From NCBI GenBank assembly GCA_021777565.1, contig JAJYDJ010000004.1, forward strand, positions 34,077-98,076: a stretch of DNA of 64,000 nucleotides, given 5' to 3'. A program made the position numbers and the translations under genes. Source of the DNA: a bacterium. Its GTDB lineage: Bacteria; Patescibacteriota; Microgenomatia; Levybacterales; UBA12049. This document shows, piece by piece, positions 27,725 through 45,003 of the stretch; the stretch's first letter is position 1, and every line of letters starts with the position of its first letter. A model generated the notes under the pieces. It did not search any database and was not told where the DNA came from. It saw only the letters and a program-made list of their open reading frames with translations.

Positions 27725-27762
27725 AGATTTACTCATGAGTGGTATAGTCATAAATGAAATAA

Positions 27763-29034: not shown

Positions 29035-29129
29035 GAATCAAAAAGGCAGAACAACTTCAAAAAGTGGCCATAGAGGGGATAGAGCAAGCAAACAGACAAG
29101 TCGAGTCTATACTCTTAGCTACTAACTGA
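28950..29129 (+). pseudogene. fragment resembling the conserved C-terminal region of a type I R-M specificity subunit (HsdS)
   Basis: 59-codon stop-to-stop ORF, KVKIPVPSLEEQAEIVKEIDARIKKAEQLQK..., which resembles the HsdS repeat motif (i)PlPpLeEQk.Iv..ld. No start codon and no target-recognition domain. Confidence 0.3.
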
Positions 29130-29233
29130 ATATTCTTAAATTCTTAAAAGAAATGAGACCAATTTTCTTGCAGATGATATTCATCATAATGTTAGGATCG
29201 ATCGATTTAAACGGCTTTATAGAGGCTCATAGC

Positions 29234-29647
29234 CTATTCCTGTTGTTGGGCTAGATACTGATCTATCAACTCAATATCTCTTTTATCTTTCTCTCTATTC
29301 AGTTTTTCTTTGTAGTAACGTACTTCCTCTATTCGCACAAATGGGATACCTTCTCTTATTTCTGCTTCTTTAATCATCGTTGGTATATCCTTTCTTGTTA
29401 CTGCAAACCACCAGTTAGATATTTTTACTCCACTAAATCGTATGAATCCTTCTTCATTTGGCGTATATTCCTGAATGAGCTTTCCCCAGAGTTTATTTGT
29501 AACGATAAGGTCGATATTAGGTACTTCACGCAGGCCATACAACCCAAGAAGAGCACTGCCAAACACAGCGTACTCGCTGATTGGGAAGCTTTGTTCTTTA
29601 ACAGAAGCAATCAGGGTTTGAATGGACATAAAACTGATTATAAGCAA
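29234..29647 (-). CDS. hypothetical protein (possible minimal nucleotidyltransferase-like)
   Basis: 137 aa. FGSALLGLYGLREVPNIDLIV partially fits a GS...D NTase motif. Weak. Confidence 0.3.
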   Translation of the reverse strand: MLIISFMSIQTLIASVKEQSFPISEYAVFGSALLGLYGLREVPNIDLIVTNKLWGKLIQEYTPNEEGFIRFSGVKISNWWFAVTRKDIPTMIKEAEIREGIPFVRIEEVRYYKEKLNREKDKRDIELIDQYLAQQQE

Positions 29648-29688
29648 CTCTCTCTAGAGTTTCTACTAAGAGTTGCTATAATACACTC

Positions 29689-30909
29689 GTGACGAGAGTA
29701 CAACTTACCAATAAGACATACATATCAACAGCGACAGATGACGTTAAATTATTCTACCCAAGATCTCAAATGCAATCAGGTGAGCTCATATCAGGTTTTC
29801 AAGTAAATCGAAAACTAATTGATGGTCTCACAAAAGCTGAAGTTGTGTTTTTTTCAATGTTTTGGAAGCCAATCGGCGATTCTTTTCTATTTTTGTCTGT
29901 CTTAACCGCTTGTCTGGAATATTTGCAACTTACTCGACTAAATAATATGCCCAAAATTATCATTGATGACACGTTTTCTAACCTCATAAGACATCTGAAC
30001 ATACTCACAGAATATGAATTTATTTCACATGCAGTTGATTGGTTTAAGCAAAGCGTGCGCGAGAATAAAAATGTTGTTTTAATAACTGACGATGATCCAT
30101 TTACAATGGGAGAAAGTCCTGCAGTATTTAACACAGAAGAATATGTTTATCCGAAGTTTCACGAGAAACTAGTTGATGGCGATATTATCGATTATCCCTC
30201 ACGGCCAGCGAGATATTTTCTAACCTTTGAGAGAGAGGTAGGTATTAGATTAAAATCTGATCCTAATCTATCGCTTCCTGACTTTATCATGAATGATGAT
30301 ATTACTCTCACACAAAAATGTATAAATGATTTTGGGATTGATCTTGATACTCCTGGCCTTACATTCCTGGGAGTTATTAACCAAACCAGCATGGTGGAAA
30401 AAAAATTTGGAGGTCTAAGGTATCTTGAGGTAATAGATAAGCTATATGAGCTTAATAAAAATATTGCTGTTCTTTTCCTAGCTAACACAAAAGAAGAGTC
30501 GCCAAGTGAATGGCTAGCAGTTCTTGAAAAGATTAAAAAAAGTCCATATAAGGTCTATTTGATCGACTCTCGGGATTTTGAATTGCTTGCCTACATGTTC
30601 GCTCGATGCAAGTTGGTGTTGGGGAATGATACAGGCTTTTCTCATTTAGCCGCAATGTGTAAAAGATCCTTGTTAGCACCAAATGTGCCTTGCGTGATCA
30701 CTTACTCCAGACATGATTATGGGAAATGGAGTACAGGAAAAGAAAATGTCTATCCTGTCGTCACAGAGTTAAGTCAATACCTCAAGGATAGTAACTCCTC
30801 AATTAGTCGAGACAAAATTGATGTTACCAACTGGGGTTTAAAAGAGTGGGCATATTCTATATCTGAAGACGCTGTTTTTAACAGAATCAAAAAAATATGG
30901 GAAAAGTAG
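29689..30909 (+). CDS. GT9-family glycosyltransferase (heptosyltransferase-like)
   Basis: 406 aa. C-terminal LVLGNDTGFSHLAAMC resembles the GNDSGPMHLAAA signature of ADP-heptose:LPS heptosyltransferases. Confidence 0.6.
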   Translation: MTRVQLTNKTYISTATDDVKLFYPRSQMQSGELISGFQVNRKLIDGLTKAEVVFFSMFWKPIGDSFLFLSVLTACLEYLQLTRLNNMPKIIIDDTFSNLIRHLNILTEYEFISHAVDWFKQSVRENKNVVLITDDDPFTMGESPAVFNTEEYVYPKFHEKLVDGDIIDYPSRPARYFLTFEREVGIRLKSDPNLSLPDFIMNDDITLTQKCINDFGIDLDTPGLTFLGVINQTSMVEKKFGGLRYLEVIDKLYELNKNIAVLFLANTKEESPSEWLAVLEKIKKSPYKVYLIDSRDFELLAYMFARCKLVLGNDTGFSHLAAMCKRSLLAPNVPCVITYSRHDYGKWSTGKENVYPVVTELSQYLKDSNSSISRDKIDVTNWGLKEWAYSISEDAVFNRIKKIWEK

Positions 30910-31841
30910 ATTTAACTATTCTTGTACCTGCTTGGAATGAAGAAAGAAATATAACAAGCTTTCTTAGTGATATTGCAGATCAATTAAATTATAGTTCATT
31001 TAAAACAGATGTCATCATCCTTGCTAATGGATGTGTCGACAATACTATCCCACTGGCAAAGTCTCATATACAAAAACAGTCCTTACCAAATGTTTCATGG
31101 CTAATACAAGTGTTTGATGATCCATTTAAGAATAAAGTTCTTAATGCAGGCATCGAGTTGGCAAAATCCGATATTATACTCAACCTTGATGCCGATTCTC
31201 GTTTAGAAAAAAATTGTATTTCTCGCCTTTATAGCTTTTTACTAGATAATCCAAAGGTTAATTTAGTTGGAGGGCTGGATATACCTATTTACGACAAGCT
31301 CAATAAGGAAACACTACTTTATCAATTTCAGAGAACTCAACAGATCTGGAGAGAAGAAAGAGGTCGTGTTATGGCAATCGGTGCTGTTATGATGTATCGT
31401 AAATCGTCATTTAACGGGTTCCCCTTGGATGCAATCTCTGAAGACACCTGGCTCTCTTTATACATTGCTTCTAAGTTTGGCTGGGAATCTGTAAAAGTAC
31501 TCATGGATGCCAATATTCACATCTTCGCTCCGACAAGTTGGAGTGATTACTTAAAACAACAAACTCGTTGGGACACAGGATATGTCCAACTTATGAAAAA
31601 CCACCCAGAGCTTCAATCAACGTATGATAATCGTAGAAGCTTGTTTAAAAGAAGAAGTAATGAAGAGATATTCGAGAGTGTATACAACAGGCTTGATGAA
31701 GAAAAGATAGCTCGATCGCGCTTAGTTGAGCTTCGTGATATAATCAATATCATTATTGAAGAAAATAGTGATATTGAGTACGACTCAATACTGAGAAATG
31801 TAGGGACATGGGACCCTATTATTTCCACAAAGGGAGCATAA
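30897..31841 (+). CDS. family 2 glycosyltransferase
   Basis: 314 aa. LTILVPAWNEERNI, ILANGCVDNT, DADSRL (DxD). Overlaps the upstream GT9 gene by 13 nt. Confidence 0.7.
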   Translation: MGKVDLTILVPAWNEERNITSFLSDIADQLNYSSFKTDVIILANGCVDNTIPLAKSHIQKQSLPNVSWLIQVFDDPFKNKVLNAGIELAKSDIILNLDADSRLEKNCISRLYSFLLDNPKVNLVGGLDIPIYDKLNKETLLYQFQRTQQIWREERGRVMAIGAVMMYRKSSFNGFPLDAISEDTWLSLYIASKFGWESVKVLMDANIHIFAPTSWSDYLKQQTRWDTGYVQLMKNHPELQSTYDNRRSLFKRRSNEEIFESVYNRLDEEKIARSRLVELRDIINIIIEENSDIEYDSILRNVGTWDPIISTKGA

Positions 31842-31842
31842 T

Positions 31843-32499
31843 ATGAAAACTTATACGAGAGATGAAATTTATGAGCTTCACAAAAAATATACTCAAGGCG
31901 CTCATCCTGAGCGTTTTCTAGATAGTGTCTGGACACATTCTCAAATTGTTGCTGAAATTGCAGATCGTATTTGTGACTTTCTCAAAAAGACGTATGAGGT
32001 CACTCCTAATCGCGAGTTAGTTCAGACTGGGGCACTTCTTCATGACATTGGAGTATATAAATGTCATGATGACGAGTTAAACCCCGTCCAGGAGCCTGGA
32101 TATATTTCCCATGGTATAGAAGGCTATAAAATACTCAAAAAAGAAAGTTATCCAGAGTACTTGGCTCGCTTCCCGTTGTCACATACAGGAACAGGTATTA
32201 CAACAGAAGATATTGAAAGAGAAAACTTCAACTTAGAACTTAAAAATTATATTCCTGTCACTCTTGAAGAAGAGATTGTTTGCTATGCTGACAAGTTTCA
32301 TACAAAGTATCCAGCTTTTGACACGTTTGATAAAGCAAAGTCTAGACTTGAGAAATTTGACCCAAGTAAAGGGATACTTATGAATCGATTTAAAAAGAAG
32401 TTTGGTATTCCTGATGTAAGCGATCTAGAGGCCAAATACAAAGATTGGCAAGAAGAGTTAGATCACTACCTCACCTCCCTGTCCGAAGCTAAAAAATGA
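31843..32499 (+). CDS. HD-domain metal-dependent phosphohydrolase
   Basis: 218 aa. H...GALLHDIGVYKCHDD (the HD motif) plus downstream His/Asp residues. Confidence 0.65.
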   Translation: MKTYTRDEIYELHKKYTQGAHPERFLDSVWTHSQIVAEIADRICDFLKKTYEVTPNRELVQTGALLHDIGVYKCHDDELNPVQEPGYISHGIEGYKILKKESYPEYLARFPLSHTGTGITTEDIERENFNLELKNYIPVTLEEEIVCYADKFHTKYPAFDTFDKAKSRLEKFDPSKGILMNRFKKKFGIPDVSDLEAKYKDWQEELDHYLTSLSEAKK

Positions 32500-33602
32500 T
32501 CTCTAAAGAATTAGTTGTCATAGAACGATATGTCCCTAGAAATCCTGTCCATGAACCAAATAGAGATGGTTTTCGTGCAGACAGTTTATTAGTAATCGAC
32601 AATGCCGATTTAGGTCCAATTGGTGTAGTAAGAAAAAAGACGCATTACGTTAACAGTCCAGCAGATGTGATGATAATGCCCTTAGAGGGAGCAATCTCAC
32701 AAATTACTGAACTATCCGAAGCAGAAGCAGCCTCATTCTTGTTAACTTGTGCGAGAGTAGTTGATGCAATGAGAGAAATTTCGCCTGATGGCTCTCCAGT
32801 TATTGCAATAAATCAGCAACCTGATTGTATAATGCTTCCTACTAAATTTGCTCCAGATGGCACTGAGCTTAAAGTACAGACAATAGATGCAATACATGCA
32901 CATGTATTTTTAGAAGATGGGCGAGGACTACCGCGTGGGACAATTTCTTCAATGGATAAAGTTGCATCAACTGACTTCTTTGATCCACTCGGACATGCAG
33001 TAAGTCAATTATTTATTAGTGAGGTTAATAGACAGTTGGATGAAGCTGGGCTTGCTACTCAATCAACATACAACACAGATCACTTCCCACTTGGTATCAA
33101 TGTACCTTTCGACGGAGATATTGTTGCAGTACTTACAGATCCTCGTATTGCACGATTTATACAAGCTACGCAGAGGAGTTACGTACAGACATATAGAATG
33201 ATTGAGCAGATTTGGCAAAATTACTCAGGTGAAGCAAGGCGAGATCAGATTACACAATTTTTCTCAGGGTTATCTGGAGAAAACATACAAGTAAGAGAAT
33301 TTGTAGAAAGAGTGATTCTTTCTCTTAGAGAAGATGTATCTGGTGTTGAAAGACACCATAGATTAGTACAAGGCCCTGCTCTGACCTGGGTTATTTATGA
33401 AAGAGATGGAAGGTGTTATATTCACTTAACTCCTCGCTTTTTTTCTCGCGGAAACGCAATGGAAGATTTAGGGGTTTGGGTAGAACCAGTAGAGGAAGTT
33501 ACACCAGATCTATCTGAAGCAAATGACTTCTATAGGTTACTTATGGTAAAATTGGGATCAACCCTTCTTGTTTCTGAAGGTGCATCCTTATATGAAAATT
33601 AA
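32496..33602 (+). CDS. hypothetical protein with HIT-superfamily-like N-terminal region
   Basis: 368 aa. LLVIDNADLGPIGVVRKKTHYVNSPADVMIMPLEG...IDAIHAHVF resembles the HIT fold, but the third His of the HxHxHxx nucleotide-binding motif is replaced by Phe. Tentative. Confidence 0.3.
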   Translation: MISKELVVIERYVPRNPVHEPNRDGFRADSLLVIDNADLGPIGVVRKKTHYVNSPADVMIMPLEGAISQITELSEAEAASFLLTCARVVDAMREISPDGSPVIAINQQPDCIMLPTKFAPDGTELKVQTIDAIHAHVFLEDGRGLPRGTISSMDKVASTDFFDPLGHAVSQLFISEVNRQLDEAGLATQSTYNTDHFPLGINVPFDGDIVAVLTDPRIARFIQATQRSYVQTYRMIEQIWQNYSGEARRDQITQFFSGLSGENIQVREFVERVILSLREDVSGVERHHRLVQGPALTWVIYERDGRCYIHLTPRFFSRGNAMEDLGVWVEPVEEVTPDLSEANDFYRLLMVKLGSTLLVSEGASLYEN

Positions 33603-35274
33603 AAAAGCAAATAAAGTGCCTTTCATAACCTCACTTGAGGACGATTTCCTATCAGGAAAGAATAAAAAACAGAAAAAGTTATTCAATGAGGTAATTGATG
33701 CTGGATTTGATTTTTATTCAGGCAAACAACGTGATCAAAAATTTCTTGTCTATAGAACTCCAGACGAGCTTAAAGAAGTCTTTGCAGAAGCAATGCCAGA
33801 AGATAGTACTGACCTACCGTCAATCATCAACTATCTCAGACTAATCGGACACTATTCAATTTCCCAATCAGATTTGAGCTACTTAGCGTTTCCTGACTCT
33901 GGGAACTCTATAGCTGCACTACTTGGAGACATCTATGGTAAATTTTTGAATCAAAACCTGATTGCATTTGATCGAAGTGCACCAGCAGCAACCATTATAG
34001 AAATTCAGCTTATTGAATGGTTACGAGCGTTAATCGGGTATGAAAGTAAAGAGTTAAAGCAAATTGAAAACCTAGCAGAAGTATCAGGTATGTGCACGAC
34101 AGGCGGGCATATGTCAAATCACGTAGCCACTCTCTCTGCACTTAATTGCAAATACCCTCAAATAAAAAAAGATGGGCTTTCAAGTCTAGATCATTCCCCG
34201 AAAATAGTTTTAGCTGGCAAGATAGGTCACTACTCATATGGAGCTGCTATGCACCATTTAGGACTTGGGAACGCAAATATTATTAACACTGATTCTAACG
34301 ATGACTTCACGACTAACATAGATGCACTTGAGAATGTGTTAGAACAGCACAAGGACAAAAATGATATTTTTATGGTTGTAGCAGTAGCGGGAAACTGTAG
34401 AACAACGGGAATAGATAACATTGCCTCAATTGCGAAAATATGCAAGAAATATGGAATATGGCTCCATGTTGATGCATGTCATGGAGGCAGTTTATTATTC
34501 TCTGATAAATTAAAAAAACGCTATCTCATGGGTATCGAAGAGGCAGATTCTGTCGCACTAGATCCCCATAAAGGGCTTTTTGTGGCATACCCTTGCAGCT
34601 TTGTTCTCTTTAAGAAGAGAGATACGCTTGTAACATTCACTCGATATGAAAAAGAGGCAAGAAATGGTGAATCATGGGATTTAGGTTACATAACACCTTT
34701 CTTAGGATCAAGAGGATTTGAGTCCCTCAAGCTTATGTTACTCATAAAGCACTTAGGCAAAAAAAGGCTGAGCGAGATAACTGAAAAAAGGCAGGGAGAT
34801 GCCTTATATGTAGAGTCACTCATAGCAAAGTCAGGATATTTTGTTTTGTTTAATGATATGACATTTTATCGAATGGCTTTTGTTTATTATCCAAACAAAA
34901 TTAGAAAGCAAGTCTCAAAGTTCACTCTCTCAGATGAGACTAATCAAAAAATTATCAATTGTATTGATCATTATACACATACAATCAACAGTGAGTTATA
35001 TAAGGAAGGTGATATTTGTCTTGATGAGTTTAAATTACATGACATAGGGAACCAGACAGCAACTAATGCTAAGGAGACACGATTTTATGTAATGAGTATT
35101 ACGACAGGTAACCCACTACTTACCAATGAGAACTTAAAGAGATCCTTAAGCTTTCTCTTTAAAAAGGCAAAGCGTTACGAGTCTGCTATGGGAAAAGACA
35201 TAGTATCTATAATAAAAAGTGACACATATGCCCCGAAGGTAACAAAAACATATGGACCAGCAGGATGGAATTAA
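33568..35274 (+). CDS. PLP-dependent group II amino-acid decarboxylase
   Basis: 568 aa. The Lys-containing S-x-H-K site is in DSVALDPHKGLFVAYPCSFV, with an upstream GGHMSNHVAT-type region. The start may be the Met at 33592. Confidence 0.7.
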   Translation: MFLKVHPYMKIKKANKVPFITSLEDDFLSGKNKKQKKLFNEVIDAGFDFYSGKQRDQKFLVYRTPDELKEVFAEAMPEDSTDLPSIINYLRLIGHYSISQSDLSYLAFPDSGNSIAALLGDIYGKFLNQNLIAFDRSAPAATIIEIQLIEWLRALIGYESKELKQIENLAEVSGMCTTGGHMSNHVATLSALNCKYPQIKKDGLSSLDHSPKIVLAGKIGHYSYGAAMHHLGLGNANIINTDSNDDFTTNIDALENVLEQHKDKNDIFMVVAVAGNCRTTGIDNIASIAKICKKYGIWLHVDACHGGSLLFSDKLKKRYLMGIEEADSVALDPHKGLFVAYPCSFVLFKKRDTLVTFTRYEKEARNGESWDLGYITPFLGSRGFESLKLMLLIKHLGKKRLSEITEKRQGDALYVESLIAKSGYFVLFNDMTFYRMAFVYYPNKIRKQVSKFTLSDETNQKIINCIDHYTHTINSELYKEGDICLDEFKLHDIGNQTATNAKETRFYVMSITTGNPLLTNENLKRSLSFLFKKAKRYESAMGKDIVSIIKSDTYAPKVTKTYGPAGWN

Positions 35275-36622
35275 AATAAGAACTATATTAGAGTCAAATA
35301 GATTCTTATCGCCAACATACTCAAAGTGGTATGCGAATATTTTTGTGGATTTGTTTCACAGTAGTAGTCTCAGCCCTAGTGACTGTTTAAACCAGCTCGA
35401 AGCTGGTTATCATCCTCATAGAGTTTTATATAAATTTTTAGGTGGAAGCACATTTACGCAAGATAAACTTAACTATCATCCGATTGATTACAGTAAACAT
35501 ATTTCATTCTGCACGAAAGATGAACAAATGCATTGTAATGACCATGATCTAATTGACTACCTTAATTCTCAATATATTGGTAATTTTTCTGGATTTATCG
35601 AAAGCCTTTCTCCAATAACTACGGGAAGAATGTACTTAGATACTGGCACTGCACCGAAGCTACTGTTTCTCCCAAATAACAGAACATTTGTAGTTATTTG
35701 TATAAAGTCACAAAAGGAATATCTTGCAAATTACTATGTACTGAGTAGGCTGTTTAATGAAAGTAACTGTTGTAATGATCTTACTATTAAGACTATTGAT
35801 TCAATTGGTGTAGTGCGCAGCAACGGATTACAGTACTTCGTATCAGAATTTAAAGGTTTAGATTATGAAGCACTGATACTTGAATATGATAAAACAGAGA
35901 AAAAAGATACCTTATTAAGGGTATCACGAGAGCTAGAAGAACTATTTCTGGAAAACAATCTTTTTATTAGAAATCTTGCTCCTAGAAATATTTTATTTAA
36001 TGGCAATCATACGAGCTATCTTATTGATTTTGACAATGTCTATAACATCGAGGACAAGCACGATGTAAAACTCGCATCTAAGGAATTAAACAGAGACATA
36101 TGGTATGGGGATGTACTCTCTCGAAGAGATATAAAAACAATATTCAAAAAAAGAATCTTTTCATTTCCAGATGAGGCACAATTAACAGACATCTTTGAAA
36201 CGACTTTCTTTGAACGAGACAAAGTTAGATCAAGGGACTTAAAATACCTTTACTCTTTAGTAAGAGCCTTCGAGCAGTATGATCATTATTTAGACATAGA
36301 TATCTATGGTCACCAATTGGGTAGGTATATCTCAGATTATTGGGATTTATCAAGTGAAGTTAAACTGTATAAGTTTATTGCCCAAAATAAAACAAAGATT
36401 AAATACCTTAGAGCAATTCTTTATTTATTGTCTAGGCTCGATCAGGAGTTACTTCTAAGAAAAAAATACCACTTAGATAAAGATCTGGAATTGTTATCTG
36501 AACTAGCATTTCATAAAATTGCAGAAAATAGAGCTAACCCAGGTGTGAAGGCTCTTAAAGTTACACTTGATCCAGATTTAAGTTTCACAGAAAGGTACTT
36601 GGCGGTAAGGAGTGCAATATGA
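35252..36622 (+). CDS. hypothetical protein with protein-kinase-like / APH-like catalytic loop
   Basis: 456 aa. IRNLAPRNILFNGNHTSYLIDFDNV resembles an H/xRDxxxxN catalytic loop plus a DFD (DFG-like) motif. Confidence 0.35.
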   Translation: MDQQDGIKIRTILESNRFLSPTYSKWYANIFVDLFHSSSLSPSDCLNQLEAGYHPHRVLYKFLGGSTFTQDKLNYHPIDYSKHISFCTKDEQMHCNDHDLIDYLNSQYIGNFSGFIESLSPITTGRMYLDTGTAPKLLFLPNNRTFVVICIKSQKEYLANYYVLSRLFNESNCCNDLTIKTIDSIGVVRSNGLQYFVSEFKGLDYEALILEYDKTEKKDTLLRVSRELEELFLENNLFIRNLAPRNILFNGNHTSYLIDFDNVYNIEDKHDVKLASKELNRDIWYGDVLSRRDIKTIFKKRIFSFPDEAQLTDIFETTFFERDKVRSRDLKYLYSLVRAFEQYDHYLDIDIYGHQLGRYISDYWDLSSEVKLYKFIAQNKTKIKYLRAILYLLSRLDQELLLRKKYHLDKDLELLSELAFHKIAENRANPGVKALKVTLDPDLSFTERYLAVRSAI

Positions 36623-37161
36623 AGAAAAAAATATCATGGAAAGAACTAACAACAAGAAATGGCTATCCAGCTGACGAAGTAATATCTGCACTCCAAAAAG
36701 AGATCCGTCGCAATAATCAGGATAAAGCAGTTTACTGGGCATATGAGTTATGCATCTCTGGGAAAGTATTTGAGACAAAGTTCTGGGAAAGAATAATAAC
36801 TATCTCAGTGGAAGACATTGGTTTCGGTAACCCTTTGGCCGTTGTAATAGTCAATTCTCTTAAGAACTCATATTACTCTGAATTTGAGCACCAAGACGAC
36901 TCGTTAATTCAGGCTCTATTTGCTGCAGCATATTTAGCCTCATGCACGAAAGACAGATACATTGATGAATATAAAAACTATCTAAAAGAGAGTAAAATCA
37001 AGTTAGAGGTTCCTGATTATGCACTAGATAAGCACACAAAGAGGGGAAAGACATTGGGGAGAGATGACAAACACTTCTGGACCGTCGCAGCTAAACTTTC
37101 TCCTGAGTTAGCAAAAAGGAACAAGAAGTATTTAAAACTTGTCTTAAAATCACTCAAATAA
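36619..37161 (+). CDS. hypothetical protein
   Basis: 180-aa ORF with a 4-bp overlap with the upstream gene. No motif recognised. Confidence 0.35.
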   Translation: MKKKISWKELTTRNGYPADEVISALQKEIRRNNQDKAVYWAYELCISGKVFETKFWERIITISVEDIGFGNPLAVVIVNSLKNSYYSEFEHQDDSLIQALFAAAYLASCTKDRYIDEYKNYLKESKIKLEVPDYALDKHTKRGKTLGRDDKHFWTVAAKLSPELAKRNKKYLKLVLKSLK

Positions 37162-37162
37162 A

Positions 37163-38350
37163 ATGGCAGAGGCAGAACCACTTCGAATTGGTATTGATGT
37201 CAGTAGAGCTAGTCGTGAAAATCATGGCATTCCCATTTATACACGTAGCGTCTTGGCTGAGCTTGGCAAGTTAGATACGACTGACCAGTTTGTCTTATTA
37301 AGTTATCCAGATAGTCCAGTTGCTCATGGATTTGGCCTTCAAGATCCTGAGTTAGCGGCAATTCCATATTCTGGGAGATATATCCCTTGGGTGAGAGTAT
37401 TTCAGGAACAAGTGCTTTATCCAGCAGCACAACAAAGGCTCAATTTAGATGTCATGTGGCACCCTCAAAATCATGGCCAGTTTTGGACTCCAGTTGGTTA
37501 CGTTTGTACCCTACATGATGTTTTGCCATACTCCAGACCAGATCTTGCGCAGGACTTAGACACAAGAAGAGAGCAAGCTCTTTACTGGAGTCGAGTACAA
37601 AGTGCTGCTCACGCAGACATGATAATCACAGTCTCAGAATTTAGTAGAAAAGAAATCATTAGGCTACTTGGCGTTGATCCATCGCGCGTTGTTGCAGTAC
37701 AGAATGGTATAGACCACACAACATTTAGAGTTCTACGGTCAGAGGTAGATAGAGCAAGACTACAAACACAATATGGTTTACCAGAAAGATATGTTCTTAC
37801 AGTTGGTAGTTATGGACCACATAAGGACCTAGCAACAATGATAAGGGCATTCAAAACCAGCGACCTCATGCGACTTGGATATAACCTCGTTATGGTAGGG
37901 CCTAAGGATGAAATTGTATACACGTCTGACCATGAAGGATTGGAAGAGATGGTGAGGGACGAAGGGCTAGAAGGAAGAGTCTTAATGCTTCCACCAGTGC
38001 CAGTTACAGATTTAGTAGGGATGTATAACGGTGCCAGTATGTTTTGCATTACATCTCAATTTGAGGGGTTTGGGCTTACGCCTCTCGAAGCAATGGCTTG
38101 CGGGGTACCTGTTATTTCATCTGACTCAAGCTCGTTGCCTGAAGTTTGTGGGAACGCGGCGCTATATGCTCATGTCGGAGACTATCTAGGGTTTGCCGAG
38201 CGGATGAACTTATTAGCAACGGATATTGAATTAGCTCGCAGAATGACTAGCTTAGGCCTTATGCAAGCTGCCAAATACGATTGGGCAACTACCGCTCAGA
38301 AAACACTTGATATATTACAACGGGTCGGAAGAACGAACAGAAGGTCTTAG
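37163..38350 (+). CDS. GT4 (group 1) glycosyltransferase
   Basis: 395 aa. C-terminal [28 protein letters not shown] is the classic GT4 motif. Noticeably higher GC than its neighbours. Confidence 0.8.
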
Positions 38351-38442
38351 CAATGGAGGAGAAATAATTGTAAGCTCTAGTGAATCGCATAATTTACACT
38401 TTGCGATATTAAGTAGGTTCTAATGTGATCCATTACCCGCAG

Positions 38443-38480
38443 CCCATAAAAGACCTGGCTTATGCCAGTTTTTTTATGGG
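38443..38480 (+). terminator. rho-independent terminator after the GT4 gene
   Basis: CCCATAAAAGACCTGGC-TTAT-GCCAGTTTTTTTATGGG. The inner stem is CTGGC/GCCAG with a TTAT loop, followed by a T7 run. Confidence 0.5.
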
Positions 38481-38505
38481 TTGGCGTGTGACATGAGTTC
38501 ATGCT

Positions 38506-38856
38506 TTAGCTAGAATCCGACACTTCGAAGAAGTTAGTGCCCTTGTGGTACACGTCCGGCAGCACGTTTGTACGCATGTCTGGCTTAAGAAGCACAACAT
38601 ATGGCTTTTTGAAGCTAAAAGTAAGCATTTTGTCTTTCAAAAATTTATAGCGCCATCCGTGCCAAAAGTCGCTGTCAACAAAAATAAGAAGCGAGCCGTT
38701 TACTATGCAGTCAGGCTTACCGTAGAGCTTGGGGTGCTTCTCATAGTTTATTTTATAGCTGTCTAATAAACCCAAAAACTTTTGCTCTAGCTGCGTATTA
38801 GTACTTCTAATACTAGACATGTTATATGTGCGTTGAGCTTTAGTGAGGTTGTCCAT
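38506..38856 (-). CDS. vsr: very-short-patch repair endonuclease (Vsr)
   Basis: 116 aa. TKAQRTYNMSSIRSTNTQLE...GKPDCIV...FVDSDFWHGW matches the Vsr N-terminal and catalytic motifs (RSxNMSxIRsKNT...PD...FxHGCFWH). Confidence 0.7.
   Translation of the reverse strand: MDNLTKAQRTYNMSSIRSTNTQLEQKFLGLLDSYKINYEKHPKLYGKPDCIVNGSLLIFVDSDFWHGWRYKFLKDKMLTFSFKKPYVVLLKPDMRTNVLPDVYHKGTNFFEVSDSS
38545..38564. repeat. att-core-like copy of the tRNA-Gln 3' end (GTCCGGCAGCA)
   Basis: GTGGTACACGTCCGGCAGCA. The 11-nt core is identical to tRNA-Gln 10918..10928 and 17/20 identical to the 41404..41423 copy. Lies inside the Vsr 3' coding end. Confidence 0.5.
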
Positions 38857-38881
38857 ACAGTTTTCTGCATAGCAAAATCTA

Positions 38882-39901
38882 TTAAAATTCCATGTAATAT
38901 TTGTCGCCGTCCATTTTGTAAAAATTGATGCTGTTTCTGCCGTATGCGTCTAATGTATCTTGAGTAACAGGAGTAAGAGGTAACAAAGCACCGCTCTTTT
39001 GCAGTTTGCCTTTTATCCATTGGCCTAATATAGATAAATTACCCCTTGAGCGGATATTTTTGAAATAGTCTCCACTTGTTTTCATTGGAATAATAAACCC
39101 ATCATCTGTGTAGGCAGTAAAGTCGCCCTTGGGGTAAAGAGGGTTAGAGGTAATGTCTCTATTTGCAATCAACTCTACTTCATACCATGGCCTCGCGAGC
39201 ACCTTTCCTGTTGTCCTGCTCCACCTGCCTTTACCAAAATATACATTAAGATTTGATTTTTCTTTATCAGCAACTCTTGTAAGAGGGTAGTCTAACTCTG
39301 GCAGCAAAGACTTATCTACAGTAGCGGGGTCATATTTGGGTAAGTCATCAAGCGTCTTGAGAGAAATCTTATTACTGTAGTCAGAAGTACCAGGTACAAC
39401 AATATCGGCTTTAACTATAGAAACAGCATTATCCGGCTGGAAAAGATAGTCAAGAAAGTTATCTAAGCCATTTACTGTTTCGTCATCACCTATTGAAGCC
39501 GTACATTCAATGTTTTCTGTTAAACCGCTGCGGGAGAAATTTGATGAGCCCAAGTAGTACTTCTTTTGCTGTGCATTTTCAAAGAGGTATACTTTCCCGT
39601 GATATTTGCCATTATAACTAACATAAACTCCGCTGCCATTGCCTAAACTTTCAAGGCTGTTACTCAAACTGGTTAAACGGGTTAGTTTATTTGCCGTCAG
39701 ACCCTCATAAAAAGCCATACCAACAAGAAGTCTTGCTTTCCCGCCTTTTTCTGCTATTCTCTCAAAGTCACCATAAAATTTATTGATTATATCCAGAGAA
39801 ACGTAGCCAGATGCTATCGTAACGCTTTCAGCATCTCTAAATTCATTTTCAACTTTTTGCAGAAAATTTCCGCCTGAGCCATCTGTATTAGTCCACAACA
39901 T
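38882..39901 (-). CDS. PLD-family (Nuc/BfiI-like) restriction endonuclease candidate
   Basis: 339 aa. YHGKVYLFENAQQKKYYLGSSNFS fits the HxK(x)4[DE](x)6-9GSxN phospholipase-D nuclease motif. Sits between a C5-MTase and Vsr. Confidence 0.45.
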   Translation of the reverse strand: MLWTNTDGSGGNFLQKVENEFRDAESVTIASGYVSLDIINKFYGDFERIAEKGGKARLLVGMAFYEGLTANKLTRLTSLSNSLESLGNGSGVYVSYNGKYHGKVYLFENAQQKKYYLGSSNFSRSGLTENIECTASIGDDETVNGLDNFLDYLFQPDNAVSIVKADIVVPGTSDYSNKISLKTLDDLPKYDPATVDKSLLPELDYPLTRVADKEKSNLNVYFGKGRWSRTTGKVLARPWYEVELIANRDITSNPLYPKGDFTAYTDDGFIIPMKTSGDYFKNIRSRGNLSILGQWIKGKLQKSGALLPLTPVTQDTLDAYGRNSINFYKMDGDKYYMEF

Positions 39902-39907
39902 ATTTAG

Positions 39908-41017
39908 TTAGCCAACTAGTGGCAGTTGATTATAATTTTTACTTTCAACTTGAATATATTTCAAGGCATCGCCTGAGAGTTGTCTAAGTTGTTTTTCTTC
40001 TGTCTTAGTATAATTACCTGCAAATACTTTCATAAGCTCTTTTGCTACTGCTCTAACACCTGCTGGGGGGACTGAATTGCCTATTTGCTTTCTAACCTCA
40101 GTTATTGTGCCTTCAAAAATAAAGTCATCTGGGTAGCCAAAAAGCCTTGCACGCTCTCTATTGGTCAAAGGCCTTGGCTCACTATAGTGATAACCCCAAG
40201 TGCCTCCCCCTCCGCCTGCAATAATAGTTGTAGATGGTTTATTCCTATTAAGCCTGCGGTAAACATGGCTAATCATACCTTTAACATAGTATGGGCTGTC
40301 TTTGGGAATATCTGTAAAATTTCCTCCCTCTGGAATTAGGCTTATTATTTTTGCAGTCCTTTCTTTAATATTTATTAGCTCATTGTTATAAAGTGCTTTT
40401 TCAACGCCTTTTAGAGCTTCACCGGTAGTCACATAATTAGTTGCATTATGAGTCGGCTCAGGCTTCACAAATTCAAAGGGAATATCGTTTCTAATACCTA
40501 TTATGAGTACTCTTTCTCTTAATTGAGGCACGCCATATTCTGCAAAGTTAAATAAATTTACATAAATTCTATAACCAGCCCCATCAATATGAGAGAAATC
40601 TTTTACTATTTGCTTTATAGCCATTCCTTTATTTGCCGTTAGTATTCCCTTGACATTTTCTGCTACAAATACTTTTGGTAATTTAGTTTCAACTGCTCTG
40701 ACGAAGTGTTTATATAAGTTACCTCTATCTGTTTCAATACCGCCTCTTTTCCATATCATTGAAAAGTCCTGGCATGGAAACCCGCCGGTAATTATGTCGC
40801 AGTTGGGGACTTTGTTAAAATCAACATCATTTATGTCGCCCTCAAATATGTGGTCTCCAAAATTTCTTTTATAAGTTTCGCAAGCAGCATGGAAGTTGTC
40901 ATTTGCCCAAACTACCTCAAAACCCTCTTTCGCAAAGCCTAAGTCAAGACCGCCACAACCGGAAAATAAAGATAATATTTTGGGTTTATTCGTTTTGCGA
41001 GCTTTACCATTTTGCAT
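39908..41017 (-). CDS. DNA (cytosine-5)-methyltransferase
   Basis: 369 aa. Motif I LSLFSGCGGLDLGF, motif IV GGFPCQDFS, motif VI ENVKG, C-terminal motifs QIGNSVPP. Confidence 0.85.
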   Translation of the reverse strand: MQNGKARKTNKPKILSLFSGCGGLDLGFAKEGFEVVWANDNFHAACETYKRNFGDHIFEGDINDVDFNKVPNCDIITGGFPCQDFSMIWKRGGIETDRGNLYKHFVRAVETKLPKVFVAENVKGILTANKGMAIKQIVKDFSHIDGAGYRIYVNLFNFAEYGVPQLRERVLIIGIRNDIPFEFVKPEPTHNATNYVTTGEALKGVEKALYNNELINIKERTAKIISLIPEGGNFTDIPKDSPYYVKGMISHVYRRLNRNKPSTTIIAGGGGGTWGYHYSEPRPLTNRERARLFGYPDDFIFEGTITEVRKQIGNSVPPAGVRAVAKELMKVFAGNYTKTEEKQLRQLSGDALKYIQVESKNYNQLPLVG

Positions 41018-41101
41018 ACTTTAATCAGTATACTTAATTTATTTTCAATGCGCCATATATCAATCTGTATCATTCACTACTAAAATTACCTACTGCCTTT
41101 A

Positions 41102-41380
41102 GAATATACTCATAACTAGAGCGGTGGCATCGTTGAAGACGGTACGTGAGGTATTGCACAAGCGACAGTAAAATTCATTTGCAGATGGGTTACGGTAAAG
41201 TGTACCTGCTCTTAGTTTACAGGACGGACAGACAAACCACACTCTTTTGCCACCATAGTTACATTTGGTTGTTGTAAGTCTGATTTGTTGATACCCAAGC
41301 TCAAAGAAATTCCCGCATGTGAGGGCATTTTTTTTGAGACTGTTGTAGAGATGTATTCGTGCGTAAGCAAAGATCCGCCG
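41102..41380 (-). pseudogene. start-less ORF fragment encoding a 4-Cys zinc ribbon (possible transposase/integrase-associated relic)
   Basis: Hand translation of the minus strand gives ...KCNYGGKRVWFVCPSCKLRAGTLYRNPSANEFYCRLCNTSR... There is no ATG start in 93 codons. It is not in the ORF track. Confidence 0.2.
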
Positions 41381-41403
41381 CTACGAAGTAGCTAGTACTT
41401 TTA

Positions 41404-41423
41404 GTGTACAGGTCCGGCAGCAA
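41404..41423. repeat. second att-core-like copy of the tRNA-Gln 3' end
   Basis: CAGGTCCGGCAGCAA (41409..41423) is identical to tRNA-Gln 10915..10929 (15/15). The copy at 38545 shares a GTGTACA-GTCCGGCAGCA context. Confidence 0.5.
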
Positions 41424-41515
41424 ATACTCATTTTTAGCCATTCATTTCCTTCTTGTTTTTGTTTGGCATAGACATATAGTTTCAAGAACTATTCTGAACG
41501 CATAGTTTGTTATAA

Positions 41516-42430
41516 TTGTTTTTAGGCTTAAGATACATGATGAAAAGATACCTATTCCAATTAAATAACACATATAATAACGAAAAACCTTTCTACGAGA
41601 TAGATTCACTACCTAACTCAGACGTAGTTAAAGTTTATATATTCGGAGGCAGAAGTGACTTTGCACCAAATGGAATGGGTAGTATCTATATCTATTTAGA
41701 ATTGCGTGATGAACTTACCCCAAGAAATGTCTTTTATAACCTTCAGAGAATACTTAACCTGATTTATTTAGAAACTGGAAGTTCAACGTACTACAGAGAA
41801 ATTCCATTAAATGGGTTAAGTAATTTTGATGAAATTTATACTACTTTTGGTGCTTCTAAATATTTTGACGGCGCTACAAGTTACCATGGGATTACTCCAG
41901 AACCGAATCATATTTTAAGAGTTCAGCAACTAATAACACTGATTAACAAGGTAAATGAAAATGAGTTTATGAAATTTGATAATTCTTTAAATACATACGT
42001 GTGGGCTTTAGAATTAAGAGAGCTTCCTAATCCTCATCTGAAATTTACTTTATATATGACTCTTCTTCTTTCGTCTATTGAGCAACTGTCTAGTAGTCCT
42101 AGCAACTGTGACTTTCATGATCCTTGTCCTAAATGCCAAAGAGAGCTTTCCCATCATGTAAAAGGGCAGGGACAAAGGCAAGCTTTAGAAAACCTGATTA
42201 GGCACTTATTGACAGGAGCTGGTGTGGAAGATGGGGTTAAGCGAGTGAGTCTATTATATGGAAAGCTTCGGTCATCCTTTCTACATTCAGGGAATTTATA
42301 TGGAGGAGAAAAAGATGGAGGATTTTTAGAGGGGGTAGAGAACGACACTGAATTGTTAGAAGATGAGCTAAATATAATACTTCTTGTTAGAAAGTTATTA
42401 GAGCAGTTCCTAGTTAAAGGCTCTCAATAG
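41516..42430 (+). CDS. hypothetical protein
   Basis: 304-aa ORF in a low-GC stretch. No motif recognised. Confidence 0.35.
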   Translation: MFLGLRYMMKRYLFQLNNTYNNEKPFYEIDSLPNSDVVKVYIFGGRSDFAPNGMGSIYIYLELRDELTPRNVFYNLQRILNLIYLETGSSTYYREIPLNGLSNFDEIYTTFGASKYFDGATSYHGITPEPNHILRVQQLITLINKVNENEFMKFDNSLNTYVWALELRELPNPHLKFTLYMTLLLSSIEQLSSSPSNCDFHDPCPKCQRELSHHVKGQGQRQALENLIRHLLTGAGVEDGVKRVSLLYGKLRSSFLHSGNLYGGEKDGGFLEGVENDTELLEDELNIILLVRKLLEQFLVKGSQ

Positions 42431-42733
42431 TTGGAATACAAACATAAAAGTATGACCTCACGAAAAGAACACTCAGTAGTAACTTTTACCGTCTATATAC
42501 TTCGTACATCATCTAACACAATCTACATTGGTCAGACGAATAATCTAGACAAACGTTTAAAGGAGCACAAAAGTAAAACGACGAGGTCGGCGAAGTACAT
42601 GAAGTATTTTGACTCTTTTGAACTGGTGTATACAGAAGTCTACGGGACCAGAACCGAAGCACTGCAGAGAGAGTGGCAGCTGAAACAACTGACGAGAAAG
42701 CAAAAGGACGCTCTGATAAATAAGCATTATTAG
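42431..42733 (+). CDS. GIY-YIG nuclease-domain protein (UPF0213/YhbQ-like)
   Basis: 100 aa. VYILRTSSNTIYIGQTNNLDKRLKEH is the GIY...YIG motif plus the conserved R and E. Confidence 0.65.
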   Translation: MEYKHKSMTSRKEHSVVTFTVYILRTSSNTIYIGQTNNLDKRLKEHKSKTTRSAKYMKYFDSFELVYTEVYGTRTEALQREWQLKQLTRKQKDALINKHY

Positions 42734-42774
42734 AACTCTGTGAGAGTAGATACCCTCAAGTGAGGTATTAACCT

Positions 42775-43647
42775 TCACGTCTTTATAAAAAGAAGGACTA
42801 GTCCAGCAGTAACACCAACCACACCGATAAACTTTCTCTTTGTCAATTCATCTTTAAAGAAGAATGAAGAGAGAAGAGTGATCAGCGTAATGGATGCAGC
42901 ACTAGCTGCATTAATATATCCAGGATTAGGTGAGCTTGTATAGCCAAGCTGCGTATACAGATTGTAGAGGAGTGACATGCTGCCGATTATGAGAAGAATA
43001 AATGCTTTTGAGATACCAAGTGTTATTTTTCTCTTGTTTATGATTGCTTCACTGACTAAACAAATAGTTACAAAAAGAAACAAGTAAAAAAGATAGACAT
43101 ACACAGGTACTCCAACATGAATAATATAAACAGACACCAGAGTCAGAAATGAAAAACAAAAAAATGCGCCAATTGCCATGATCGCCCATTTATTATTTTT
43201 ATTTGACGGTTTTTTCGTTGACTGAGGAGAAATGGTAATAAGAGCAGAAAATACTAAAATAAGGCATATTGCTACTGTGCTCGTAAATGTGAGAGATGAA
43301 TGAAAGAAAAATACTGCAAAAAGAGTTGTGAAGACTACATAAGATTTTGTAATGGTAAGGCTGTATCCAGGGTTTGATGCCTGAAGAATACTTGTTTGGG
43401 ATAGGATGTTACCAATATAACTGAGAAACACAGCAGCAAGAAATATAATTGCAAGGTTAGGCCATGAAATCGCAATTGACCCATGGGCATTATATATTAA
43501 CCAGGTGTAACCAATGAGTGGGATAGCAAACATTGCCAGAAGATACTCAGTAACAGAAATATTATGCACTTGCCCTTTTCGTATGAACAGGTACATGACA
43601 ACTGATGCCAAAAAAAGTGCAATACTATCAAATACCCAAATTGGCAT
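42775..43647 (-). CDS. EamA/DMT-family membrane transporter
   Basis: 290 aa. About 10 hydrophobic helices arranged as two 5-TM repeats. Very AT-rich. Confidence 0.55.
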   Translation of the reverse strand: MPIWVFDSIALFLASVVMYLFIRKGQVHNISVTEYLLAMFAIPLIGYTWLIYNAHGSIAISWPNLAIIFLAAVFLSYIGNILSQTSILQASNPGYSLTITKSYVVFTTLFAVFFFHSSLTFTSTVAICLILVFSALITISPQSTKKPSNKNNKWAIMAIGAFFCFSFLTLVSVYIIHVGVPVYVYLFYLFLFVTICLVSEAIINKRKITLGISKAFILLIIGSMSLLYNLYTQLGYTSSPNPGYINAASAASITLITLLSSFFFKDELTKRKFIGVVGVTAGLVLLFIKT

Positions 43648-43703
43648 AGAAAAATTATAGCAGAACTATTTTAAAAATATTCTTGACGAGGGGAAACATT
43701 TCT

Positions 43704-43997
43704 TTATCCTTTTGTAGGGTTGAACTTGCCAGACACTTTGATAATCTTGTCACCTTCTGCAAAACTCTCCCAGGTTTTCTTACTCAAGGATACGGTCTTC
43801 TCTTGACCATCATCGGTTTTTACTACCAGATGATAGGTAGTGTACGTGTTGTCATCAGCTCCATCGTGATCTCGAGAATATTTTCTTGCAACCACACCAG
43901 TATATGCTTGCTTCTTGGTGTTCACGATCACGAACCAGACAATAACGCCACACAGGACCAACGTACCAGCAATAGTTAAAAATGAGACCATAGTCAC
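43704..43997 (-). CDS. small membrane-anchored hypothetical protein
   Basis: 97 aa. N-terminal TM helix followed by a charged soluble domain. I prefer this over the overlapping + strand ORF 43683..43979. Confidence 0.35.
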   Translation of the reverse strand: MTMVSFLTIAGTLVLCGVIVWFVIVNTKKQAYTGVVARKYSRDHDGADDNTYTTYHLVVKTDDGQEKTVSLSKKTWESFAEGDKIIKVSGKFNPTKG

Positions 43998-44051
43998 ATT
44001 TTATACAATGACAGGCATGATCGCAAGAGATAAATCTGATATACTGTACTT

Positions 44052-44435
44052 ATGGACACCAATAAGCTAACGATTGTCATTAACAAACCACTTACTGAGG
44101 TGTTTGCTGCCTGTGTCACTCCACCCATGGCCAAACTTTGGGTGCCAAATATCATCAACGAAACTACCAGTGAATGGCCAGTAAAGCCGGGGACTATCTA
44201 TACTGAATATAAAAATGATAATACTTCCTTTAATATCATCGTGACTGAGTACGAAGAGAATGCCTATATTGAATGGCAGACAGAAGATGGCAATTACCAC
44301 GTGCGTTATACCTTTACCCCCATTGACCAGAGCACGACTCAACTAGAATACGTCGAGACAGGGGATGTTAGCGAACCATTTACTCAAGAAATTTTAGAAA
44401 AACTCAAAGAAGTGATCGAAAATACTCCTCGTTAA
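44052..44435 (+). CDS. SRPBCC (START/AHSA1/polyketide-cyclase-like) family protein
   Basis: 127 aa. Beta-rich pattern beginning LTIVINKPLTEVFAACVTP...W. Confidence 0.45.
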   Translation: MDTNKLTIVINKPLTEVFAACVTPPMAKLWVPNIINETTSEWPVKPGTIYTEYKNDNTSFNIIVTEYEENAYIEWQTEDGNYHVRYTFTPIDQSTTQLEYVETGDVSEPFTQEILEKLKEVIENTPR

Positions 44436-44497
44436 CCCCAACCTCTGACTGCCTCGGTTTGACATACATCACACAAAGGTAAATACTAAAAATAGGG

Positions 44498-44719
44498 ATG
44501 GAGGTGAGGTATATGTTATCTAAAGAAATGTTTTTTCAAATCGTAGGCGTCATTTTCACACTGGTAGGGTTATTACATCTTATTCGTTTGCTTACCGGGT
44601 TTCAGGTATTGTTTGGTACCTGGGAATTTCCTCTTTGGCTCAGTATCGTTGGAGTAATTCTCCCTTGGTATCTAGCCTATAACGCATTTAGCTTGGCAAA
44701 AAAGAAATCAAAAAAGTGA
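44498..44719 (+). CDS. small membrane protein
   Basis: 73 aa with two predicted TM helices. Confidence 0.3.
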   Translation: MEVRYMLSKEMFFQIVGVIFTLVGLLHLIRLLTGFQVLFGTWEFPLWLSIVGVILPWYLAYNAFSLAKKKSKK

Positions 44720-44731
44720 GGGGGTGATAGT

Positions 44732-44980
44732 ATGAAATATTCAACGAAAAGATTTGCACTCGCGGGTGGGATCGTGTGGGGGTTATGTTTGTTTGCGACT
44801 ACATTAGTTAGTGTCTATACAAATGGCTTTGCAAAAGCATTTCTTGATGGGGTAGGAAGCATTTACCCAGGGTACTCGATTTCAGTGGTTGGAAGTGTAG
44901 TCGGCCTTATATACGGTTTTTTTGACGTGTTCATTGGGGTATATCTCTTTACTTGGGTGTATAAAGCACTAGGCAAGTAA
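44732..44980 (+). CDS. small membrane protein
   Basis: 82 aa with two or three TM helices. Confidence 0.3.
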   Translation: MKYSTKRFALAGGIVWGLCLFATTLVSVYTNGFAKAFLDGVGSIYPGYSISVVGSVVGLIYGFFDVFIGVYLFTWVYKALGK

Positions 44981-45003
44981 CAAATTACTGATATACTCAA
45001 AAC

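Follow-up and report, generated by a model that had tools for sequence, protein, structure and literature searches.

A 64,000-nucleotide stretch of contig JAJYDJ010000004.1 (GenBank assembly GCA_021777565.1, forward-strand positions 34,077 to 98,076), referred to below as the window, probably carries a tandem array of at least four integrative elements, stacked at a single tRNA-Gln(CTG) gene by large serine recombinases (LSRs) of one family. Reading outward from the tRNA, the order would be tRNA, element E1, element E2, a relic of about 115 bp, element E3 and more low-GC cargo. E3 is a restriction-modification (R-M) islet at 38.56-41.42 kb that encodes a C5 methyltransferase (MTase), an NgoFVII-type endonuclease with phospholipase D (PLD) and B3 domains, and Vsr. 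Judged from its sequence, the islet is likely to be a stranded, decayed element that is neither autonomous nor currently mobilisable. Tandem accretion at one tRNA had already been proposed in a preliminary description of this DNA; the proposal is supported, with junctions of the serine-recombinase kind, whereas the boundaries of the elements and the nature of the repeat differ from those described.

The 11-mer GTCCGGCAGCA occurs four times in the 64-kb window, on the + strand, at 10918-10928, 28636-28646, 38554-38564 and 41412-41422. The first, third and fourth of these had been located correctly, and the repeats are real and non-random as the preliminary description held, but the copy starting at 28636 had been overlooked. 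Nor do three copies make up the full set of junctions, since a fifth, degenerate junction at 38439-38443 retains GCAGC only and is invisible to a search with the 11-mer. The expectation that such recurrence is unlikely by chance was borne out by 100 dinucleotide-preserving shuffles of the window, which yielded no copy at all. The 15-nt match between the tRNA and the last copy is also confirmed, the 15-mer CAGGTCCGGCAGCAA being exact at 10915 (in the tRNA) and 41409 and having two mismatches at 38551. The GTGTACA context noted around the two distal copies belongs to a far longer likeness, with 70% identity over 96 nt between 38470-38564 and 41328-41422 (alignment score 25, shuffles 4.5 +/- 2), which ends precisely at the end of the 11-mer. 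All copies have the same orientation and are confined to a low-GC island (GC 0.30-0.40 over approximately 11-45 kb, compared with 0.42-0.46 in both flanks), and three of the four adjoin recombinase coding sequence in register. The tRNA-Gln(CTG) is the sole tRNA in the window (ARAGORN; Rfam tRNA, 63 bits). A 16-mer, TACASGTCCGGCAGCA, gave 117 matches in viral contigs, about the chance level and with dissimilar flanks.

Five junctions, all in the same orientation and core register, were placed in the window. Each consists of an arm on the left, either the tRNA (B) arm or an element (P) arm, a GCAGC block, and a right flank:

S1, GCAGC at 10923-10927: tRNA (B arm) on the left, 3' end of LSR1 on the right
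S2, 28619-28646 (+), GCAGC at 28641-28645: canonical P arm GTTCGAATACTGTCTATGTCCG on the left, 3' end of the truncated LSR2 on the right
S5, 38417-38443 (+), GCAGC at 38439-38443: canonical P arm GTTCTAATGTGATCCATTACCC on the left, terminator hairpin on the right
S3, GCAGC at 38559-38563: arm z on the left, putative LSR3 remnant on the right
S4, GCAGC at 41417-41421: arm z' on the left, unrelated sequence on the right

A motif scan found no more cores or P arms to the right of S4 within the window. Read in the recombinase sense, the P-arm DNA has the form GCTG[CG]-N7-8-GGAC-N3-ATT[CA]GAAC and copies the inner arm and the T-loop of the tRNA with 5 extra bp between them. The T-loop-like motif ATT(C/A)GAAC starts 17 nt past GCTGC in the P arms (S2, S5, L085, L204, L205, L221, L213R and L216R, where L numbers denote LSR loci) and 12 nt past it in the tRNA (B) arms; within the window the P-spaced motif is found at S2 and S5 only, and the tRNA has the B spacing. 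The P-arm motif is present at the attP-type ends of L085, L204, L205, L221 and L247 and at attR of the integrated L213, L216 and L217, 7.5-10 kb from attL. Because the same arm lies at the far end of these three integrated elements, it can be assigned to the element. In serine integrases, the distal motif contacted by the zinc-ribbon domain (ZD) is 5 bp more distant from the centre of attP than from that of attB (PMC3783163), and the sites described here satisfy this offset rule.

When attL and attR are compared in L213, in L216 and in the window, strand exchange can be narrowed down to the 4-5 bp GCTG(C), read on the + strand as (G)CAGC, immediately 3' of the acceptor stem. Since the exchange is confined to this block past the stem, the tRNA is never disrupted and its body stays host-derived. 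Similarly, the 11-mer is mostly identical between sites because the P arms mimic the inner B arm and not because a crossover was duplicated. A reading of the 11-mer as a duplicated crossover or a displaced piece of the tRNA therefore does not hold: the GCAGC block alone is exchanged, and the remainder is arm mimicry. The predicted empty attB junction is …GGTTCGAATCCAGGTCCGGCAGCCCATAAAAGACCTGG…. The recombinase ORFs of this family extend through their own attP into the tRNA 3' end, and the last conserved LSR codons, S/N-L/W-L-P/R-D/G, correspond to the discriminator and acceptor strand of the tRNA read in antisense.

The tRNA, the elements and the units that separate them are as follows:

10856-10927 (+): tRNA-Gln(CTG), B arm of S1 (attL), with the GCAGC block at 10923-10927 (ARAGORN, Rfam)
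10867-12642 (-): LSR1, intact 591-aa large serine recombinase of E1 (Pfam Resolvase; CcrA/CcrB/XisF-like)
10928-28640: E1, comprising LSR1, a conserved module and cargo; low GC (Pfam)
28543-29034 (-): LSR2 remnant, C-terminal 120-140 aa or so, attP-type tail MLPDIDSIRTF...
28646-38438: E2, cargo only, between S2 and S5 (ORFs, Pfam)
38442-38481: terminator-like bidirectional hairpin, starting at the S5 exchange block
38470-38564 (+): arm z plus the 11-mer (S3), 70% identical to 41328-41422, no T-loop-like motif
41300-41422 (+): right end of E3, comprising hairpin' (41300-41340), arm z' (41328-41411) and the 11-mer (S4)

Residues 19-135 of LSR1 match the Pfam Resolvase domain (PF00239, E 5.6e-14), and in an alignment of 40 homologues Ser 24 is nearly invariant and Arg 22, Arg 72, Arg 97 and Arg 100 are conserved without exception, as are Cys 305, 308, 322, 325, 338, 341 and 372. 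The match of LSR1 to the Pfam Recombinase domain is weak (E 0.002; 18.7 bits, under the cut-off of 21.1); PF07508 and PF13408 are present in several of its homologues. The LSR1 ORF runs into the tRNA, so that its last 20 or so codons (LLPDLDSNQDKRIQSPLSYH) are the antisense strand of tRNA-Gln; the closing codons are …SSLLPDLDSNQDKRIQSPLSYH, and the antisense of the 11-mer reads LLPD. A total of 212 homologues were matched, and most of the 120 whose C-terminal tails were listed end in a tRNA-antisense peptide (…DSN[QPH]…LSY[HR]); the source names of these 120 are WWE3, Levybacteria, Woesebacteria and Pacebacteria. A minority of homologues (P0002, P0029, P0040, P0043, L221 and others) end instead in the tail D-x-I-R-T-[YF]…. 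Scanning metagenomes for LSR homologues gave 80 loci, 77 of them with a scorable C-terminus, and an antisense tRNA overlaps the LSR 3' end in 58 of the 77 (ARAGORN; 40 Gln, 10 Ser, 3 Asn, 3 Met, 1 Pro and 1 Ala). In L261, L262, L275-L277 and L288 ARAGORN called no tRNA, yet the LSR 3' end enters a T-arm-like sequence, with a conserved GGTATATAGTCTCTACACATTT block after it; such loci may harbour Patescibacteria tRNA genes that contain introns or are atypical in some other way. No member of the family was found among 2.9 million IMG/VR viral contigs. As the elements also carry primase, Prim-Pol and DUF5659 modules, this suggests that they are non-viral integrative elements and not prophages.

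The region between the tRNA and the islet, formerly regarded as a single island A, consists of two elements parted by the copy at 28636, which lies on a truncated second recombinase gene. The LSR2 remnant is 39% identical to residues 474-578 of LSR1 (E 7e-19), in register through the core, and 37% identical to P0002 with the tail included; it matches the LSR C-terminal hidden Markov model (HMM) with an E-value of 4e-31. E1 and E2 meet at S2, a hybrid junction of attP-like form, and by hand count the P arm of S2 agrees with that at attR of L213 at 24 of 27 positions. S5 is the right end (attR-type) of E2. Its P arm shares 27 of 30 nt with the one that adjoins the closest LSR homologue, in L085 (E 1e-4), and encodes LRVMDHIRTY on the minus strand. 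The right end of this region thus lies at the degenerate site 38439-38443 and not at 38554, about 115 bp further right, where it had been placed. No intact recombinase is present among the E2 ORFs. A zinc-ribbon segment (EEKWQIIC) of 48 of the 120 LSR queries gave weak tblastn matches at 33066-33140 (-), with a best E-value of 0.05; they fall antisense to a 368-aa ORF of E2 and probably reflect chance likeness to a short motif.

The R-M islet contains the following genes:

38565-38645 (-): putative LSR3 3' remnant, …LKDKMLTFSFKKPYVVLLKPDMRTNV-LPD, sharing the frame of the core codons and joined to vsr
38646-38856 (-): vsr, N-terminal 70 or so codons, C-terminal half deleted (Pfam Vsr, TIGR00632, PDB 1cw0)
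38882-39901 (-): restriction endonuclease, NgoFVII-type PLD with a C-terminal B3-like DNA-binding domain; ORF intact
39908-41017 (-): C5 cytosine DNA methyltransferase; ORF intact (PF00145, E 5e-79; TIGR00675)
41099-41300 (-): small zinc-ribbon ORF, frameshifted, in the gap between the MTase gene and the S4 unit (…CNYGGKRVWFVCPSCKLRAGTLY…, …TKCNYGGKRVWFVCPSCKLRAGTLYRNPSANEFYCRLC…; three-frame translations)

The C5 MTase, PLD endonuclease and Vsr attributed to the islet in the preliminary description are all present, although Vsr is reduced to its N-terminal 70 or so residues (Pfam Vsr positions 1-68, E 2.8e-13; positions 2-76 of the 119 of TIGR00632; residues 5-71 of PDB 1cw0). The endonuclease matches PF09565 (E 2e-20) and PF20731 (E 2e-25), and these two matches and that of the MTase to PF00145 are all above cut-offs. 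L277, L252, L251 and L232, the last also with Vsr, each have an MTase homologue just upstream of an LSR gene. The zinc-ribbon ORF is probably a pseudogene; its Pfam and PHROG matches are all sub-threshold, and a 53% match over 28 aa was found in L290. No ATPase ORF is present between 38.5 and 41.4 kb. It was also correct that the islet has no intact recombinase; its left edge, on the other hand, carries 20-30 or so codons of an LSR fused to vsr. The ORF at 38506-38856 (-) is accordingly chimeric: residues 1 to about 70 are Vsr, residues from about 75 to 106 resemble an LSR C-terminus, and the frame then passes through the att core into arm z. In the S3 flank the remnant matches the LSR C-terminal profile (consensus LkdkkLlidgekpFfliek) with a conditional E-value of 0.013 and a score of 6.0 that was reached by none of 500 shuffles, and the other frames were negative. 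Of the two origins suggested earlier for the islet, an older degraded element agrees with the LSR remnant, the half-deleted vsr and the frameshifted zinc-ribbon ORF. Mobilisation in trans fits poorly, as S3 and S4 do not form an attL x attR pair and neither has the zinc-ribbon-domain (ZD-type) motif of functional-looking arms; for this last reason decay is preferred. S3 and S4 are presumably inactive. A worn-down remnant of this kind would be an ordinary fate of such islands.

The relic of approximately 115 bp between S5 and S3 consists of the hairpin and arm z, and on the + strand a terminator-like hairpin precedes both z and z'. The unit with the hairpin at 38442-38481 has a fold of -45 kcal/mol (z-score -3.7) and terminator calls on both strands. 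No Rfam family beyond tRNA was found in the z units, and their fold z-scores are driven by the terminator hairpins. We infer that z and z' were once the P arms of a lost LSR subtype; the units resemble what would be expected of the far side of an attP inside a recombinase gene, namely a core, a short tail ORF, a stop and a terminator. A YTK.T..YF likeness of z and z' to the tail of P0029 was dropped as the tail tests were not significant, and the right flank of S4 and the tRNA-side flank of L085 are alike by eye, again without significance. On the + strand, z (38495-38515) and z' (41375-41395) each contain a 5-bp hairpin with a GAA loop, ACTTC-GAA-GAAGT and GCTAC-GAA-GTAGC, respectively, which differ by two compensatory pair changes; the comparison involves two sequences only.

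Under the proposed array, every new element would integrate at the tRNA and displace the older ones outward, so that successive integrations would leave hybrid junctions with a P arm, a core and a recombinase 3' end, and the newest element would be the one nearest the tRNA. Decay rises with distance from the tRNA, from the intact LSR1 to the LSR2 remnant of about 140 aa, a C-terminal fifth, and the LSR3 remnant of about 25 codons, and it is in this order, newest to oldest, that we infer the integration events. Such a gradient is described for other tRNA-targeting elements, and tycheposons show the same accretion pattern with fragmented integrases (10.1101/2020.12.28.424599). Other loci of the family commonly show tandem LSR arrays with hybrid junctions of the attP type. 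In L265 (918-17417) four LSR genes share one orientation; one of them has an attP-type tail 4.5 kb from the LSR copy at a tRNA-Ser, and another of the four lies at a second tRNA-Ser; L238 and L239 (61-11761) have two LSR genes each; and in L085 (7100-8500) the tRNA is followed by a 1.3-kb recombinase-less three-gene module, an attP-like junction and an LSR element.

The array probably continues past 41422, and the region to the right of S4 would then hold one or more further decayed elements:

41423-45000: low-GC region (GC 0.35-0.40) with genes for a 304-aa protein, GIY-YIG, EamA and small membrane proteins

In L289 and L224, genes homologous to those for the 304-aa protein and EamA are located 3-6 kb upstream of LSR genes. 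No junction marking a right-hand border of the island was detected in the window.

Several results weigh against the array as drawn here and against the origin assigned to z and z'. The T-loop-like motif is absent from both arms at either spacing, their global alignments with the tRNA and with the canonical P arms are no better than those of shuffles, neither local DNA alignment with the P tails nor an HMM of the tail peptide gave a significant match, and the z arm was not found in any of 84 LSR loci. The left end of the relic coincides exactly with the S5 exchange block, for which there is no simple explanation; a relic starting there would require a site-specific deletion, unless the hairpin and z are of native origin. 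The S3 remnant is short and is not significant on its own in a search of the whole window (E 6.8), and the C-terminal HMM test revealed no LSR remnant in the right flanks of S4 and S5. No empty site, circular junction or polymorphism was found, five assemblies of the same strain being identical wherever they overlap, and a homologue search gave nothing closer than 55%, on contigs that stop before the tRNA. Exact look-ups of the M16, MTase and 304-aa proteins likewise returned the same arrangement only, with no alternative junction, and a search of genome contigs for the flanking M16 peptidase found relatives of at most 30% identity. The circle junctions predicted for E1 (…GTTCGAATACTGTCTATGTCCGGCAGCAAGCTTGAAATAGCC…) and for E1+E2 (…CCATTACCCGCAGCAAGCTTGAAA…) are not in IMG/VR, a search that did not include the islet circle, and attR of L086 was not found within its 10-kb flank. 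One contig of an independent assembly, k141_1400503 (L210, ERZ27233572), ends at 41416, between GTCCG and GCAGC of the S4 core, which could be a chance effect of low coverage or a hint of heterogeneity at S4.

Despite this, the alternatives fare less well. It is rather unlikely that the R-M islet is a recombinase-less satellite, similar to a cis-mobilisable element (CIME), that is still moved in trans by LSR1 acting on S3 and S4. The inner arm and exchange block of S3 and S4 are identical to those of LSR1's own attL, the R and M ORFs are intact, the 1.3-kb module between the tRNA and the attP-like junction of L085 provides a precedent for a recombinase-less unit, and the L210 contig terminates inside the S4 core. 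That break, however, precedes the shared GCAGC, whereas a recombination break is expected after it. Both islet junctions lack the ZD-binding motif that is present in all other P and B arms, and S3 (arm, core, P' remnant) and S4 (arm, core, unrelated flank) do not make an attL x attR pair; according to PMC3783163, serine integrases do not recombine pairings other than proper att pairs. The broken vsr and zinc-ribbon ORF and the presence of an LSR remnant speak for decay, no alternative junction was seen in any assembly, and IMG/VR contained no attP circle of E1 or E1+E2. Trans-mobilisation would predict the following islet junctions:

Circle: …GTGTACAGGTCCGGCAGCACGTTTGTACGC…
Deletion: …GTGGTACACGTCCGGCAGCAAATACTCATT…

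We also regard it as unlikely that the hairpin, z and the 11-mer belong to the native DNA, or to a small repeat imitating the tRNA 3' end, such that S3 and S4 would not be ends of tRNA integrations and the R-M cassette would have entered between the copies by homologous recombination or integration at a secondary site. Such an origin would account for a homology between z and z' of approximately 96 nt plus the hairpin, much longer than an LSR site, for the position of the first unit right after the tRNA-side exchange point of E2, where the native terminator of the tRNA is expected, and for the absence of matches to z among LSR loci. It does not account for an in-frame LSR C-terminal remnant exactly at the S3 core or for a core orientation and register that are the same as at the other three junctions, and to the right of S4 the GC content is still low and genes have homologues beside LSRs elsewhere. 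That the recurrences are due to chance, to a generic dispersed repeat or to a peptide motif with no link to site-specific recombination is given almost no weight. The 11-mer does encode L-P-D in several minus-strand ORFs, and a 16-mer version occurs at chance level in viral contigs. This explanation is nevertheless effectively refuted by the shuffles, none of which had even a single copy, and the copies occur in a single orientation and in the low-GC island only, three of the four abutting recombinase coding sequence in register. The tandem array, with a decayed R-M islet, is therefore retained as the favoured explanation.

Both canonical attP x attB serine recombination and tandem accretion are already known. 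The LSRs described here resemble the A118/LI, Bxb1 and phiC31 serine integrases in having an N-terminal resolvase domain and a long C-terminal region with Cys pairs, and their sites are likewise short, with a small exchange block, a shared inner recombinase-domain (RD) segment, hybrid attL and attR and an outer motif whose distance from the centre is 5 bp greater in attP than in attB. They differ in that the target is a tRNA 3' end and not a protein-coding gene or an intergenic site, that the LSR ORF crosses attP and has its last 25 or so residues replaced on integration, and that the elements carry primase and replication-like modules, with none found in IMG/VR. With the tycheposons of Prochlorococcus and the accretion of integrative and conjugative elements (ICEs) and CIMEs in streptococci, the array shares repeated integration at one tRNA that displaces older elements and recombinase-less modules between att sites, and with tycheposons also fragmented integrases and extra att copies along the island (10.1101/2020.12.28.424599). 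In the window, however, the recombinases are of the serine and not the tyrosine type, whereas serine recombinases are a minority of 27 of 937 in tycheposons; the repeat in the window combines arm mimicry with an exchange block of 4-5 bp and is not a displaced partial tRNA; and the host genome is of the Patescibacteria type, of about 1 Mb. A classical tyrosine-integrase tRNA island does not describe the region either, given a serine recombinase, an exchange 3' of the acceptor stem and repeats whose upstream flanks are unrelated to the tRNA body, and the R-M islet probably lacks the usable flanking att sites of a CIME, as S3 and S4 have no ZD motif and form no attL/attR pair.

What is unusual is that a clade of serine recombinases targets mainly tRNA 3' ends, as is normally credited to tyrosine integrases, that exchange takes place immediately beyond the acceptor stem, and that attP lies within the recombinase ORF, so that the C-terminal 25 or so residues are swapped on integration. 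The integrated form ends in the tRNA-antisense peptide …DSNQDKRIQSPLSYH. The tail of the free (attP) form is D-x-I-R-T-[YF]-[YW]..[ST]…F-[YF]-I-P-N-Y, which is conserved well past the DNA-binding site in attP copies (L085, L204, L205 and L221) and is kept at attR of integrated elements (L213 at about 1511, L216 at about 2214). Conservation beyond the DNA site, even at attR, hints that the tail may have a function. It is conceivable, though doubtful, that the swap acts as a built-in sensor of integration state that sets the stability or directionality of the LSR, and that the recombinase-less modules, such as the R-M islet and the 1.3-kb module of L085, are cargo cassettes shuffled by such arrays. 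A full-text literature search of partial coverage found no description of such a tail swap on integration. Mycobacteriophages have an integration-dependent immunity switch, which the tail swap resembles, but here the swap would act on the serine integrase itself. If functional, it would be a new coupling of recombinase properties to integration state.

If the array is as proposed, the 34-kb low-GC region is made up of stacked serine-recombinase elements that differ in age, and the junction grammar (GCAGC block, inner-arm mimicry, T-loop-like motif at +12 or +17) allows such islands to be delimited elsewhere. Genome-reduced bacteria appear to gain and then lose accessory modules, including R-M systems, aminoacyl-tRNA synthetase (aaRS) paralogues and glycosyltransferases, at one tRNA-Gln hotspot. 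As regards the R-M module, the islet shares with NgoFVII, NgoAVII and CglI an R protein with PLD and B3-like domains, an adjacent C5 methyltransferase and a Vsr gene beside the MTase gene. It differs in that Vsr is reduced to its N-terminal half and no gene for an ATPase (N) subunit is adjacent; the CglI and NgoAVII systems require this subunit.

The cargo of E2 includes nucleotidyltransferase-like, GT9, GT2, HD, PLP decarboxylase and GT4 genes, among others. E1 has a conserved module of genes for 478-, 126- and 481-aa proteins, DUF5659 and a 442-aa protein, and genes of this module recur beside LSRs in L085, L236, L263 and L213-217. E1 also has 10 kb of cargo that encodes three class-II aaRS paralogues, GT2, a short-chain dehydrogenase/reductase (SDR), an amidohydrolase, a kinase and NUDIX, a set that could form an aminoacyl-tRNA-dependent biosynthetic or cell-envelope module. 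The three paralogues (tRNA-synt_2) lie at 18123-19097 (-), 21452-22846 (+) and 23597-25597 (+). One type is an AsnA/AspRS-core-only protein, another is a full AspRS-like protein with an OB fold, and the third is a fusion in which a glutamyl-tRNA-reductase N-terminal domain and a shikimate-dehydrogenase-like domain are joined to the aaRS core. The AspRS-like copy of the island is approximately 60% identical at the nucleotide level, over some 250 nt, to a chromosomal copy at 61823-63187 (-).

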